Below, piece after piece: positions 4,462 through 36,680 of a stretch of DNA of 36,680 bases. Below the pieces are notes generated by a model. It was not told the DNA's origin. It made no database searches and saw nothing but the letters and a program-made list of their open reading frames with translations. Source of the DNA: a virus. Taxonomy: Duplodnaviria > Caudoviricetes. Each line of letters begins with the position of its first letter. Position 1 is the stretch's first letter. Where the stretch lies: the IMG/VR virus record IMGVR_UViG_3300043171_000189, positions 1 to 36,680 of that record; one strand, written 5' to 3'. A program made the position numbers and the translations under genes.

Positions 4462-5961
4462 TTATACCCTTGCTACTCTTTGTTTAGGTTGAGAACCCCA
4501 CAATTCTTCCAAACACATCTCTTGTGTAGTCTTCAGAGGTTCATGCATTACAGGTGCATTTGGTATACTTATAACAGAAAGTCGCCTACCTATCAAGGAT
4601 AGTGTATCGACACCGTCATCCACGCCCTGCCCTGTAGCGTTGGGAAACAGGATAATCTCAGTGGTGAGCCACTTTGCCCATGGTGCATCCGCAGGCATGA
4701 ATATGAGTCCTCGTTTATACATACCTCGTAACGCAGCTGCCCTAGTTTCCTTATCTTGCCCACGCATGGGCATAGGTTTCCAGTTAACCGGTGTACCAGT
4801 ATTACGAGCTTCACTTGCAACAAGATGTACAAAGACCTTAGACGCATTATCATCATCGATTAACCACTCCACAGGTTTGTAGATTTTAGCAAGAGCAACA
4901 AGGTTCTTACTAGATTCATTAGGGTCAACTCTGTCACGTACCATCTCAATAATATCACAACTACCATCAGATGCAACAGCAAGTATTGCATGAACTGTGT
5001 AATCACCTGTATTGACCGATAATGCAATATCCGTCATACCGTATAGAACAGTGTTAGATGTGATCGTAGGGCTAGGCCTGAAGCGAATATCCTCGGTGTT
5101 TGCCCAGGCACCATCATCTGCAGGTGGCTCCTGCTGATACATTGTACGCCAGATGAAGTCATCACGCTTGAAGGTTCTCACCATCTGTGCTGTGTACCAC
5201 TCAGGCCACAGACGATCACCCTCTAGCCGACCAAGTGGATCAACAGCTGAATCCAAACACTCCATCTTGATATTTAACACTTTCAGTCTGCGTATCGGGT
5301 CTGCCTTATGCTGATCGATTATGTGACCGGCAAGGTCGTTACGGGCCAGACGCTGACAGATGAGCACAGTCTTGGCACCAGGCTTGAGCCGTGAGGTGTA
5401 ATCCGTATCGTACCAATCATGAATCTTTTTCAGCTGAGTGAGACTGTTCGCCTGCTCCCAACCAGATATCGGATCATCGATTACACCAAGGTCGCAACGT
5501 CTACCAAGAGCAGCACCTCCAACACCAACACCAAAGAACCCACCACCCTGTGTGGTCTCCCACTCAGCAGCTGCCCTGGTATCGGGTGATAGCTTCACAC
5601 CATCGGACGCAGCATCGAATGTAGGACTGTTTATGATGTTCCTCACCTTCTTACCCCATCGCTCCATCAAGGGGAAACTATGTGAGGCACCAAGGATAAC
5701 CTTGTCGGGATATTTACCAATGAAGTATGCAGGTAGTGCGATTGATGCGTAGGTGCTCTTAGCGGAGCCTGGTGGGGTGTTTATGATCAGATCGTCATAG
5801 TCATCAGCAAGTAACCTATCGATCTCGTAGCAGATGACCTTGTGGTGCAGTGCAGGGATTACTTCAAGAAACTCTTCAGCGAAGGTGGCAAGCGTGCTGA
5901 ATGAACGCTTCCTCCGATCAAGCTCCTTGAGGATTTTATCCATCTGAGGATTAGATGTCAT
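4462..5961 (-). CDS. terL: Terminase large subunit
   Basis: Walker A PPGSAKST, GVGVGG..GRR motif, Walker B VIDDP, and C-terminal nuclease acidic motifs (MTDIALS, DDGVD). Confidence 0.95.
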   Translation of the reverse strand: MTSNPQMDKILKELDRRKRSFSTLATFAEEFLEVIPALHHKVICYEIDRLLADDYDDLIINTPPGSAKSTYASIALPAYFIGKYPDKVILGASHSFPLMERWGKKVRNIINSPTFDAASDGVKLSPDTRAAAEWETTQGGGFFGVGVGGAALGRRCDLGVIDDPISGWEQANSLTQLKKIHDWYDTDYTSRLKPGAKTVLICQRLARNDLAGHIIDQHKADPIRRLKVLNIKMECLDSAVDPLGRLEGDRLWPEWYTAQMVRTFKRDDFIWRTMYQQEPPADDGAWANTEDIRFRPSPTITSNTVLYGMTDIALSVNTGDYTVHAILAVASDGSCDIIEMVRDRVDPNESSKNLVALAKIYKPVEWLIDDDNASKVFVHLVASEARNTGTPVNWKPMPMRGQDKETRAAALRGMYKRGLIFMPADAPWAKWLTTEIILFPNATGQGVDDGVDTLSLIGRRLSVISIPNAPVMHEPLKTTQEMCLEELWGSQPKQRVARV

Positions 5962-6161
5962 TTAGTACTAATCCTATCAACTCGTTGGTTGAGAATATGA
6001 AGGTAATGGTACATTGTAAAAAGTTGGTTTAATAATAAATCCCTATCTTTTCTATCAATCGCTACACAAGCAGGAGAGTCAAGAAATAACTCCAACTTTT
6101 CAACCTTATCTTGTAATTCATTCTTCTCATCAATTAATCGCTCTTCCCATGTTTCACTCAT
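5958..6161 (-). CDS. Small helical-hairpin protein, crAss001_48 / T4 Y16Q-like (candidate Sequestin-type sponge)
   Basis: Pattern R-x3-E-x2-EL-x2-K-x2-KL-x2-F ... LL-x2-Q-x3-M-x2-Y-x2-IL-x2-R recognised by eye; RBS-like GGAG upstream; stop overlaps terL start. Confidence 0.7.
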   Translation of the reverse strand: MSETWEERLIDEKNELQDKVEKLELFLDSPACVAIDRKDRDLLLNQLFTMYHYLHILNQRVDRISTK

Positions 6162-6198
6162 CGCTCATCTCCATTAAGGTTAAATGTTTTCAGTCGAA

Positions 6199-6744
6199 TT
6201 AGAGGTCATCCCCATCCTCCCCTAGACCAACACTGTCAGGGTCGATCCCTGCCTGCTCTATGTACATCTTCTTGAGGTCATCGCTTGATAGAGTCTTGAG
6301 CTTGTTGTCATCGAGACCATTAGAAGTAAGCTCGACATGCTTGTTGTTACCGTACTTCTTCTTGTTCCAACTCCCGGCTTTATACTTCAGCACCTCAAAG
6401 TTAAACTTCTGCTGATCAACTGCCATACCATCGTTCGTCATCTTATCGATGAGGTGGTCCATCTTATCCACCAGTATCTCAGCTGCAATCTCTTGAGCTT
6501 CACAGTACCGTTGATGTCTAAGCGGATTCTTCTTTATCCATCGAAGGAACCGAGCATAGTCAATATTCCTCGGATCGTTGCTGAGGATACTGGTCATAGG
6601 TGTTCCCGAAGCGATGTAGTCGAGGGCATACTCGAAGATGTGAGTGTACGTCATCTCACGCAGCTCCATCTCCGCTTTGCTTGTAGGGAACCTCGGCACT
6701 TTGGCAAGCGAGGTTGATATATCTAGTTCTTCAGGATTATTCAT
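6199..6744 (-). CDS. terS: Terminase small subunit (Sf6-like)
   Basis: N-terminal HTH (YIASGTPMTSIL...FLRWIKK), Y-x-EAQE helix and KYKAG..NKKKYG motif; upstream of terL. Confidence 0.8.
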   Translation of the reverse strand: MNNPEELDISTSLAKVPRFPTSKAEMELREMTYTHIFEYALDYIASGTPMTSILSNDPRNIDYARFLRWIKKNPLRHQRYCEAQEIAAEILVDKMDHLIDKMTNDGMAVDQQKFNFEVLKYKAGSWNKKKYGNNKHVELTSNGLDDNKLKTLSSDDLKKMYIEQAGIDPDSVGLGEDGDDL

Positions 6745-6978
6745 TTATTCACCACCAACCACATCATAATCGTCTGAGGATACGGTTGGATTGGTTGGTG
6801 CCGGTTTATCACACAACCATTCATCAGGTGATTCAAGATATACAGGGTCAACATCTTCGATAACAGCAAGTGCCAATATCATACCATTAGCCATACCGAA
6901 CATGTAAGGGTCATAGTTCCAATTACCATCACTTAATTGAGTTTTGATAAGGTCTTTGAGTTGTTCAGTTCTTTTCAT
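6745..6978 (-). CDS. Small conserved protein (Q-x3-GNWNYDPYM-x-GM-x-NG motif); candidate Lockin-like sponge
   Basis: First gene after the leftward promoter, abutting terS. The CDS is well supported; the family assignment is from recollection only. Confidence 0.6.
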   Translation of the reverse strand: MKRTEQLKDLIKTQLSDGNWNYDPYMFGMANGMILALAVIEDVDPVYLESPDEWLCDKPAPTNPTVSSDDYDVVGGE

Positions 6979-7028
6979 AATTTGTCACCCTTCCGAGGTT
7001 TATTGAGGCGTAGTATACTATATAATGT

Positions 7029-7057
7029 ACTGTAACCGATCTGTTGAATGGTGTCAA
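7029..7057 (-). promoter_or_regulatory. Sigma70-like leftward promoter for the packaging/structural block
   Basis: Minus strand TTGACA (7057-7052), 17 nt, TACAGT (7034-7029), about 50 nt upstream of the first late gene. Confidence 0.55.
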
Positions 7058-7169
7058 TTTCCCTTTAAGAGAGGTGAGGTGGTGGGGATGCTGCACAGTG
7101 GAGTATGGCACTAGAATATAATTAGTGCAGACATTAGGAGCGTTACATTAGAATCTTGTAAGTCGTTTC

Positions 7170-7252
7170 TGAGTATAATTTTGAAAATATGAGGGTGTAA
7201 AACAATGTAATGTATTGATATTTGAGTATAATTTTGAAAATATGTGGGTGTA
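7170..7252. repeat. 30-bp direct repeat pair
   Basis: TGAGTATAATTTTGAAAATATG(A/T)GGGTGTA at 7170-7199 and 7223-7252, 29/30 identical, 23-nt spacer. Confidence 0.95.
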
Positions 7253-7336
7253 GTATTGGCCCCTTACCGCACCCCCCACTCCGTTGACCCCGGGGGTGGT
7301 CTTCACCTTTTCACAATCCAGGTGTCACAGGGTGGT

Positions 7337-7407
7337 ATACCACAGCGTGGTGCTTCCATGAGTTTCCACCACAGAGTAGGATACCACAACGTGGTGCATC
7401 AATGAGT
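7337..7407. repeat. 27-bp imperfect direct repeat pair with internal dyad ACCAC-N3-GTGGT
   Basis: ATACCACAGCGTGGTGCTTCCATGAGT (7337-7363) and ATACCACAACGTGGTGCATCAATGAGT (7381-7407), 24/27 identical. Confidence 0.9.
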
Positions 7408-7841
7408 ATACACCTGCCGACCCTGCCTGCCACATTGTAGTGCCTCCGCAATGAAGCATCAACCAGGCACATCGATGTGATCCAGGCAGCAAACTGCACA
7501 ACTATCTCTTGTCAAATGGTAGCAGCTGCATCATGATCTTGTGTCGAATGATGATTGCAATACTTTAATGTGTTGTGCGGTAGGTGATATGGCAAGCGAT
7601 TGTTTTGTAGATCATGCTATTCGGCAATGCTTTGTTGTGTGTCAACATCGTAATGTGTAATGTCAAACAGGTTACAACATCATACTATCGATGGTAATGG
7701 TCTGATTAGCCTTTACGATATGCTTATTTCTCTATATTATATTATATATTTTGTATGAATAATCTATACACATATTACTCAAAGGGATATCGGAACTATC
7801 CACTATAAAGTTATACACAAAACAATTTAATGTAATAATAC

Positions 7842-8000: not shown

Positions 8001-8321
8001 ATGAAAAAGACAACCAAGAAAACAATGGCAATCACTAAGAGACTTTTATCCGGTAAGTTTAGTTCAGTATCAAACATGCGGAGTAGTGCTGGCAACGATG
8101 TACCTAATCAGTTTATTGTTTACACAGATCGTTCGAGAATCTTTCAATCATATAGTTCTGTAATATGTGTTGTCGGCAACGGTGTAACAATACTTGGCAG
8201 AGACTACGACTACTCAAACACCACAATGAAATATCTTTCGGCCTTTCTCGGTCATGGTGTTGCTGAAACAAGAGCACGTATTGATTCAGGTGAATATCTT
8301 TTTAACGATAATTTAAGATAA
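8001..8321 (+). CDS. Conserved early phage protein of unknown function
   Basis: AGGAG RBS; NQFI...FQSY-x-S-x-I...DYS-x-TT-x-KY...FLG motif familiar from phage early genes. Confidence 0.8.
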   Translation: MKKTTKKTMAITKRLLSGKFSSVSNMRSSAGNDVPNQFIVYTDRSRIFQSYSSVICVVGNGVTILGRDYDYSNTTMKYLSAFLGHGVAETRARIDSGEYLFNDNLR

Positions 8322-21743: not shown

Positions 21744-21951
21744 ATTCATAGTTGAAGTTGACAGTGTTGGAAATTTGATAGACAGTCATGGGGCACACGT
21801 TTGTATGATTACGTTACCTCATAACCTAAAACCACTTGAAGCAGAAGTTGCATCGGTTGAACCTGTTTCACTCAACAAAATAATCAAGCTGAAAGAAGCA
21901 GGGTTTGATTCCGATGAAATCCTCAAAATGAATGCAGAGGGGATGATATAA
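21736..21951 (+). CDS. Hypothetical protein (71 aa)
   Basis: AGGTGG RBS; coupled to neighbouring genes. Confidence 0.65.
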   Translation: MSKFIVEVDSVGNLIDSHGAHVCMITLPHNLKPLEAEVASVEPVSLNKIIKLKEAGFDSDEILKMNAEGMI

Positions 21952-22439
21952 TGAGTAGAATATATAAGTGTACCATGTGTGGAAATACGATGGTTGACCC
22001 ATTCCCAGGGCAGCAAATGGGTTGCAGATGTGGTGGTACACATCTGTATGAGAGTGTTGTTGAAGAGGTGGTGTTAAAGCAAGGGCCTTGTTTTGAACAA
22101 TTTCCGGTAACACCAATTGACGAAGATGAGATAGCTCGTAATGATTTGAAATGGGATAATGGTAAATTGAAGTTCAGTTTAATCTTACCCGAATTTGAAA
22201 AGCTAATGGCTGAAATTCTTACCAAGGGGGAGATTAATCATCCAAGGGTAGCCGGTGAACCATCATGGCAACAGGTAGAACCTGAAGCGTATATCAATGC
22301 AATGAAGAGGCATATTAGCTCATTTCAGCTAGGTGAATCAACCGATAGTGATATGAATACACATCACATGGGGCATGTGGCAATTAATGCAATGTTTCTA
22401 TACTGGCTCGACACCGGAGGAAAATCAAATGACAGTTAA
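21951..22439 (+). CDS. dATP/dGTP diphosphohydrolase-like protein (DUF5664) with N-terminal Zn ribbon
   Basis: K-x-D-x-GK-x3-SLI, L-x2-G, W, Y-x2-AM-x-RH...GE-x2-D...H-x2-H-x3-NA-x-FL; CTMC...CRC at the N-terminus. Confidence 0.75.
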   Translation: MSRIYKCTMCGNTMVDPFPGQQMGCRCGGTHLYESVVEEVVLKQGPCFEQFPVTPIDEDEIARNDLKWDNGKLKFSLILPEFEKLMAEILTKGEINHPRVAGEPSWQQVEPEAYINAMKRHISSFQLGESTDSDMNTHHMGHVAINAMFLYWLDTGGKSNDS

Positions 22440-36434: not shown

Positions 36435-36680
36435 CTACTCGATCATCTTACCTTGGAATTGGAGGCCACAAGAAGTCAAGTTGCCTGCCCAAGCGAGAAT
36501 CTGAACCTCAGCATCCTGGTTCACTGAGTAACGTGAGTTAGGGCTAAGGGGCACCATGTCACGAGCAGAATGAGGACGATACTTGATGTACTTGGTGTTC
36601 AAGAAATATGCTTCCTTGGAACCCATGAAACCACCAATACCACCATCGAGAACAACATCAGCATCCATAAACTTTATGGA
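36435..36680 (-). CDS. Major capsid protein, C-terminal part
   Basis: Open from the right edge: SIKFMDADVVLDGGIGG...YFLNTKY...GNLT...QG; joins the 1-739 fragment in frame to give 325 aa. Confidence 0.92.
   Translation of the reverse strand, partial: SIKFMDADVVLDGGIGGFMGSKEAYFLNTKYIKYRPHSARDMVPLSPNSRYSVNQDAEVQILAWAGNLTSCGLQFQGKMIE

Follow-up and report, generated by a model that had tools for sequence, protein, structure and literature searches.

A Sequestin gene and a candidate counter-defence gene flank terS in a podophage-like genome

Why do two tiny genes, encoding proteins of 77 and 67 amino acids (aa), lie on either side of terS, the gene of the terminase small subunit, at the head of a phage packaging operon? 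They are found in the Caudoviricetes record IMGVR_UViG_3300043171_000189, which was analysed over its whole length of 36,680 bases (the window). The layout described in the original prediction, which had been made from the letters of this DNA, was confirmed: the stop codon of the 77-aa open reading frame (ORF; at 6745) directly abuts the ATG of terS at 6744, a spacer of 37 nucleotides separates the stop of terS from the start of the 67-aa ORF, and the stop of the latter overlaps the start of terL, the gene of the large subunit, by 4 nucleotides. All these ORFs are on the minus strand, and a Shine-Dalgarno-like stretch is present upstream of both small ones. The small ORFs are short and have a GC content of 39% and 33%, compared to 47–48% for terS and terL. 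Since homologues exist for both (PF21825 with an E-value (E) of 1.2e-16, and 2,224 clusters at E ≤ 0.001, respectively), they are real genes. We propose, with a probability of roughly 55%, that they are two accessory genes around terS, one coding for a Sequestin and the other for a second small signal-binding counter-defence protein, and that both are likely to be on the packaging-operon transcript. The pair would then be made up of a Sequestin that is already catalogued and a reasonable candidate for a counter-defence family that is new, both carried as separable insertions.

The 67-aa protein and the Sequestin family

The 67-aa protein matched PF21825 over the whole profile (1–61 of 61) with 60.8 bits against a curated cut-off of 24.8. 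This family was named Sequestin by Tal et al. (10.1101/2025.07.12.664507), where it was discovered by its fusion to known sponges. A comparison by eye with the printed sequence of SequestinA aligned R8, E12, Q46 and R60 of the 67-aa protein with the pocket residues R8, E12, Q47 and R61, of which E12, Q47 and R61 are essential and R8 is dispensable in SequestinA (10.1101/2025.07.12.664507). All four residues were invariant in seven of seven aligned homologues of the 67-aa protein. The window gene is thus alike to the described Sequestins (SequestinA–M, T4 Y16O) in its profile, its stand-alone size and these residues. The identical 67-aa sequence is present three times in the homologue table of Tal et al. 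(PMC12265669, file 7), and the allele is not among the 13 Sequestins that were named and tested. Judged by its sequence, the 67-aa gene belongs to the Sequestin family, and it is a known, already catalogued member. An initial assignment of this gene to Acb2 was wrong.

Type I Thoeris was inhibited by 10 of the 13 Sequestins tested, none blocked four other systems, and a purified member bound and then released 3'cADPR (10.1101/2025.07.12.664507). The Sequestin of the window is predicted to bind this signal of type I Thoeris as well; that three of the 13 were inactive in the same study weighs against the prediction. Fedorova et al. (10.64898/2026.06.04.730250) reported a Sequestin dimer solved by crystallography, and sequence searches of the PDB found no Sequestin structure. 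Very probably, the 67-aa protein would form an antiparallel dimer and strip the 3'cADPR made by ThsB once capsid proteins appear. The available text of Tal et al. (10.1101/2025.07.12.664507) makes no mention of a location between terS and terL, and the word 'terminase' does not occur in it. Each of the two small proteins had been claimed to resemble a phage protein family that sequesters Thoeris signals, and this holds for the 67-aa gene; the 77-aa protein matched no characterised family in searches of Pfam, NCBIfam, PDB sequences and folds.

The 77-aa protein and its unnamed family

The 77-aa protein matched phrog_23796, a family which includes gp34.22 of phage SPO1. It is 44% identical over 50 aa to the C-terminal half of gp34.22, which differs by a 60-aa N-terminal extension and by the location of its gene downstream of the sigma genes 33/34. 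A function of gp34.22 was not found in print, and the papers listed by a literature search with the family motif were unrelated. With a profile built from 38 sequences, the family comprised 2,224 clusters at 50% identity (E ≤ 0.001). The core corresponds to residues 2–57 with the motif Q14, G18-N-W-N-Y-D-x-Y25-M-x-G28-M-x-N31-G32, P45, P51 and W54; in 347 aligned domains Q14, G18, N19, W20, Y25, M26, G28, N31, G32, P51 and W54 were conserved to 91–100%. The model of the 77-aa protein (pLDDT 85.5) consists of a helix (2–14), a loop, a second helix (24–40) and an extended arm, without any strand, and a natural tandem repeat was modelled as two confident domains with undefined packing (pTM 0.50). 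Natural tandem duplications of the domain were seen in L046 (4701–5498; P0161), where the copy lies three ORFs before terL, and in P0163.

The domain was found to be fused to known anti-signalling proteins. Of 136 long relatives (224–2,000 aa; 88 clusters), the best 120 were scanned with Pfam, and one each carried Acb4 (P0050), Tad2 (P0148) and Acb1 (P0116). Further, the Sequestin table of Tal et al. contains a protein with the unnamed domain between Acb4 and Sequestin, on which the available text does not remark, and this triple fusion was confirmed in L075 and L084, two of 23 loci found by the motif. Two general traits of sponges, a short viral protein and recurrent fusion to known sponges, are found for the 77-aa gene, albeit at low frequency. 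Sponge modules are likewise stacked in the Acb4–Sequestin fusions (Ab09 gp59; 10.64898/2026.06.04.730250), between which the unnamed domain is placed in L075 and L084, and in Tad2/Acb4 fusions (10.1101/2025.07.12.664507); in contrast, the modules of the window are separate genes split by terS, and Ab09 has its hotspot between primase and virion RNA polymerase (10.64898/2026.06.04.730250). A 68-aa gene (phrog_1761, no Pfam match) lies directly upstream of the triple fusion in L075 (3539–3745, minus strand) and is possibly a further counter-defence gene. P0049 combines the unnamed domain with the uncharacterised WDGH domain (PF25311) in a fusion; this term is absent from the available texts of 10.64898/2026.06.04.730250 and 10.1101/2025.07.12.664507.

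Several observations weigh against a role of the 77-aa family in counter-defence. A known anti-signalling domain was present in only 3 of the 120 long fusions and 93 of them had no Pfam match; DUF5662 (5/120), dNMP kinase (4/120) and dGTP diphosphohydrolase (3/120) were commoner partners, and none of 62 mid-size family members contained a sponge domain. The triple fusions of L075 and L084 are 69% identical and, therefore, represent one lineage. Sequestin was also present in only one of 42 records bearing the family (the two records with the triple fusion are outside the 42). Neighbourhoods were compared at 49 loci (56 minus the window copy and six duplicates) with 289 ORFs on the same strand: a known sponge (Acb2/Tad1) was within three same-strand genes at one locus, Lar at one and terminase at two, and a family member followed a MuF-like head gene at two. 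The gene neighbours of the family are thus uninformative.

Some of these counts would also fit a module of nucleotide metabolism, or a general accessory module, that has no relation to immune signalling and whose sponge fusions were chance products of a promiscuous domain. The domain is indeed promiscuous and leans to nucleotide-handling partners, which include, besides the kinase and the diphosphohydrolase, a nucleoside deoxyribosyltransferase-like domain and an RNA ligase (one each) and MazG in L070 and L088; moreover, its neighbourhoods are varied and often lie in replication regions, and its co-occurrence with Sequestin is rare. On the other hand, four different anti-signalling families are among the partners, at one gene the family has been cleanly gained or lost next to a Sequestin (see below), and the helical hairpin of 57 residues appears to hold no catalytic-looking set of residues. 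We consider this explanation improbable, though with some weight. That the 77-aa protein is a counter-defence protein of some kind has slightly better than even odds.

Whether it would be a nucleotide sponge in particular is more doubtful, and we put the chance somewhat below one half. No Lys or Arg was conserved above 32% in the 347 aligned domains, and the family cores are acidic (median net charge −5; 287 of 326 negative), while the pockets of known sponges are almost always positive (10.1101/2025.07.12.664507). These findings speak against a sponge, but since the Sequestin of the window also has a net charge of −4, net charge is weak evidence. If the 77-aa protein binds a signal, neighbouring protomers might form its pocket with the conserved Asn/Gln/Trp/Tyr/Gly loop that lies between two helices, and the ligand might be a signal other than, or additional to, 3'cADPR. 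As specificity varies inside sponge families (Hadary et al., 10.1101/2025.08.24.671296), the ligands of sponges must be measured.

The acidic core without conserved basic residues and the highly conserved, exposed loop between the two helices of the model would also suit a protein which binds no signal and blocks a defence protein by direct contact via its aromatic loop, as Tad3–Tad8 do with ThsB/ThsA; Tad4, 6, 7 and 8 are reported to insert loops. The assignment of the 67-aa Sequestin would be unaffected. A signal-binding module is at least as compatible with the position between two sponge domains and with the fusion to the signal-cleaving Acb1, and a conservation of 85–100% at some ten positions in phages with hosts as different as Bacillus, Brevundimonas and Octadecabacter would suit a small-molecule ligand better than a protein target, which varies. 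Blocking by direct contact therefore appears rather unlikely to us.

A search for characterised relatives of the 77-aa protein was negative throughout and gives no direct support to a sponge: there was no match in Pfam (E ≤ 0.1), NCBIfam and PDB sequences (E ≤ 1), nor between the 38-sequence family profile and PDB sequences at E ≤ 1. Tad1, the initial assignment, and Acb2 were rejected, as neither PF24729 nor the sequence of a solved structure was matched. Tad2, Acb4 and Sequestin were rejected as well (no match to PF11195, PF13876 or PF21825), and the part of the fusion proteins that matches those profiles does not include the domain. The protomer of Lockin is mostly beta-sheet and forms a cog-like hexamer, which does not fit the two-helix model without a strand, and nine family motifs had no match in the Lockin table of Tal et al. 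In seven files of Tal et al., one of them available in part, the nine motifs matched the Sequestin table only, and six motifs had no match in four files of Hadary et al.; diverged members are missed by this method. TadIV-1 (T4 Vs.3; PMC13243611) and Acb2/Tad1 are small two-helix sponges like the model, but they show no sequence match to the 77-aa protein, since none of the 25 records matched by tblastn was T4-like and PF24729 was unmatched. TadIV-1 is a two-helix dimer with a basic N-terminal loop; in the 77-aa family no Arg or Lys is conserved, and its fold matches are weak and generic. Foldseek found no match for the monomer at E ≤ 0.001, which is no proof of a new fold; the best hit in the monomer fold search had a VIA Z of 4.5 over 47 residues, the hits being generic hairpins, a viral structure library gave one match, with an unnamed protein of 124 aa, at E ≤ 0.001, the ESM Atlas matched only unnamed clusters with scores under 0.9, and the tandem-repeat model had no match.

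A review of October 2026 counts seven sponge families (PMC13712596), and none of the seven was matched by the 77-aa protein in profile or fold comparison; the family may overlap with Tad3–Tad8 or Acb3. A role of the family in counter-defence was not found in print, although it may be described in closed supplements or in papers behind subscriptions. The farthest-reading proposal is that the 77-aa protein founds an eighth type of sponge family, with a pocket that lacks a conserved basic residue and a ligand unlike the known anionic signals, and that these podophages keep sponges in the head operon so as to have antidote and capsid trigger on one transcript; taken as a whole we regard it as doubtful. 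Should a signal be bound without basic residues, this would be a type of ligand or pocket that is missed by screens for positively charged pockets. The main value of the locus lies in the 77-aa family. This large and conserved family lacks annotation, has a member in the model phage SPO1 and is linked by fusion to four anti-signalling families, and published sponge screens could test it directly.

Both genes in sister phages and relatives

Sister contigs of the window were obtained from the runs X2 and X3 of one study, and most of their pieces are 90–99% like the window. Joints below 95% likeness in metagenomes can stem from other organisms, no single contig covers both joints described here, and uncovered stretches over the two ORFs were counted only where a joint spans them. 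In both X2 and X3, a joint 5961/6211 skips 5962–6210 and links terS to the start of terL (sides of 56 and 42 letters). In X2, two contigs contain a joint 6744/7000 which skips 6745–6999 and leads from the promoter side to the ATG of terS, with 34 other letters inserted that include a similar ribosome-binding site; X3 has a looser joint (6725/7020) across the 77-aa gene. The sister contigs cover the promoter region (7000–7078) and link it to terS, and their joints fall on gene boundaries. The run X1 carries the window form of the locus and is possibly the run from which the window stems. A contig of X3 at window position 6911–6944 is alike only in the core motif of the family, with different flanks, and is probably another member located elsewhere.

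Since in the sister contigs the promoter leads straight to terS, and terS to terL, both small genes are accessory and not parts of the packaging machinery; at the head of the packaging operon they represent accessory insertions. Because most relatives are without both genes, gain in the window lineage is the simpler reading, the alternative being loss in the sisters. The abutting and overlapping codons and the position might suggest that the terminase uses one of the small proteins, or both, as accessory factors in packaging, and the unnamed family was indeed found directly before terS in the unrelated L044 and, in L046, no more than three genes away from terL. Yet each gene is skipped exactly in sister contigs, both families are mostly far from terminase, and the 77-aa family was present in none of 47 related records. 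Such a role is therefore highly improbable.

The terS–terL slot was inspected in 84 loci that had been collected by their portal, terL or terS, of which 54 had both terS and terL (45 distinct). About 35 of the 45 leave no room for a gene, with terS and terL touching, and in up to seven the gap is filled by unrelated ORFs, with scanned inserts matching no anti-defence family; both findings speak against the slot as a regular site for sponges. In the remaining three (L135, L138, L153) Sequestin lies directly after terS. In a quick portal tree, these three form a separate clade (support 99) with a different type of terS, while L058, whose inserts are different ones, forms a pair with the window (support 99), so that Sequestin is located after terS in at least two separate places on the tree. 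When 47 related records were searched over their full length, 12 being complete to 90% or more, Sequestin was found in four, Acb4 in two, Tad2 in one and Acb2/Tad1 in three. The stretch of the head operon from terS to the scaffold gene holds six of these ten sponge genes. Taking the window into account, Sequestin directly follows terS in four of the five Sequestin-bearing genomes of the group, which belong to two separate clades. Thus, Sequestin recurs in the terS–terL slot and other sponges occur in the head operon. A swapping of different anti-defence genes in the two slots was not borne out: none was recognised before terS in a relative, and only Sequestin between terS and terL.

The enrichment in the head operon gave a binomial P of 0.02–0.08 (head module 26–34% of the sequence), or 0.02–0.05 for five of seven lineages. 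It has to be weighed against the post hoc nature of this statistic, its small numbers and the choice of records by portal, and against the four sponge genes outside the head operon, a Sequestin in the replication module of G058 and three Acb2 genes of near relatives, which are on the opposite strand. A late-operon placement of sponges is also not unique, since Bacteroides phage BC669P1, outside the group, has a Sequestin directly after terL and Sf6 has gene 66 before terS. Sf6 gene 66, of the Acb4 family (PF13876), is downstream of an annotated late promoter and three genes before terS; it is like the window genes as a late-operon sponge but differs in its lambdoid, Q-controlled late operon, its position between lysis genes and terS and its sponge family. 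Two further observations were made next to terL: a basic ORF of about 55–80 aa recurs between terL and portal in L098, L099, L100, L111, L125, L139 and L168, and LPD23 polyvalent proteins adjoin terL in the relatives L145 and L160.

Promoter, timing and genome setting

A site TTGACA-17-TACAGT is located at 7057–7029, 50 nucleotides before the ATG of the 77-aa gene with no gene in between. Sigma-70-like sites numbered 10 in the scan and 7.0 ± 2.8 in shuffled sequences, and the site is therefore not significant by count alone. As a near-consensus candidate promoter it could be used at once by the host polymerase, which counts against a strictly late timing of both small genes; in the same direction, the activity of Acb4 of SPO1 is early, at about 15 min (10.1101/2024.12.30.630793).

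The trigger of staphylococcal Thoeris is the major head protein (PMC12578639), type IV Thoeris requires the capsid vertex (PMC13243611) and type II Thoeris responds to alleles of the tail fibre (10.64898/2026.06.04.730250). The original prediction had the small genes appear together with terminase, portal and capsid proteins that host sensors detect. The reported triggers of Thoeris are capsid, capsid vertex and tail fibre; terminase is reported to be sensed by Avs, which is not known to use a diffusible nucleotide signal. Co-transcription with the capsid genes would therefore place the sponge where it is needed. It is a tentative proposal, with a little less than an even chance, that placement in the head operon is favoured because the sponge is then strongly expressed along with the capsid trigger.

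Much the same weight may be given to an opportunistic position, at which insertions are tolerated behind a strong promoter of host type and expression is not specifically late; this is compatible with a function as sponges. It would account for the sigma-70-like promoter, for the occupation of the slot by unrelated inserts in L058, L112, L140 and L145, and for the placement of the G058 Sequestin and the three Acb2 genes described above, but less well for Sequestin after terS in four of five carriers from two clades; in addition, the repeats and the palindrome near the promoter may bind a regulator. The 10-bp palindrome (7011–7020) is near the predicted transcription start, and two 30-nucleotide direct repeats (97% alike; 7170–7252) and two 44-nucleotide repeats (82%; 7326–7413) are non-coding and upstream of terS; they are candidates for sites of regulation or packaging. 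The natural occurrence of sister phages that carry or lack each gene, together with the head-operon placement, makes it testable whether counter-defence is timed to its trigger.

The features of the locus are compiled in Table 1. The window is a podophage-like record that was classed as linear and 93% complete. Since the gene of the major capsid protein (phrog_9953) is split across both ends (2–739 and 36435–36668), the window is circularly permuted; its ends (1–739 and 36435–36680) have 7 bases in common, in agreement with a near-complete permuted genome. The leftward operon starts near 7000 and comprises terS, terL, portal, a 106-aa gene, a 391-aa ORF that is probably the scaffold, as read from its position, and capsid. 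No integrase was recognised among the window ORFs scanned, and Sequestin was the only anti-signalling gene in the window that was recognised by Pfam. Rightward genes start at 8001, with a cluster of small genes up to 9942 without a Pfam anti-defence match. At 21951–22439 the window encodes a protein with a dATP/dGTP diphosphohydrolase domain (PF18909), the domain that is joined to the unnamed family in three of the 120 long relatives.

Table 1 Features at the head of the packaging operon (window coordinates).
Feature	Position	Strand	Basis
77-aa ORF, unnamed phage family, candidate counter-defence gene	6745..6978	−	phrog_23796, E 2.8e-9; skipped in sister contigs
terS, terminase small subunit (Sf6-like)	6199..6744	−	PF20901, E 1.2e-12; phrog_1482
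67-aa Sequestin, predicted 3'cADPR sponge	5958..6161	−	PF21825; identity in published table; pocket residues
terL, terminase large subunit	4462..5961	−	phrog_38, E 5e-77; PF17289
Sigma-70-like promoter candidate, packaging/head operon	7029..7057	−	10/12 consensus match
Ribosome-binding site of 77-aa gene	6985..6994	−	Sequence; similar purine-rich site before terS in sisters without the gene

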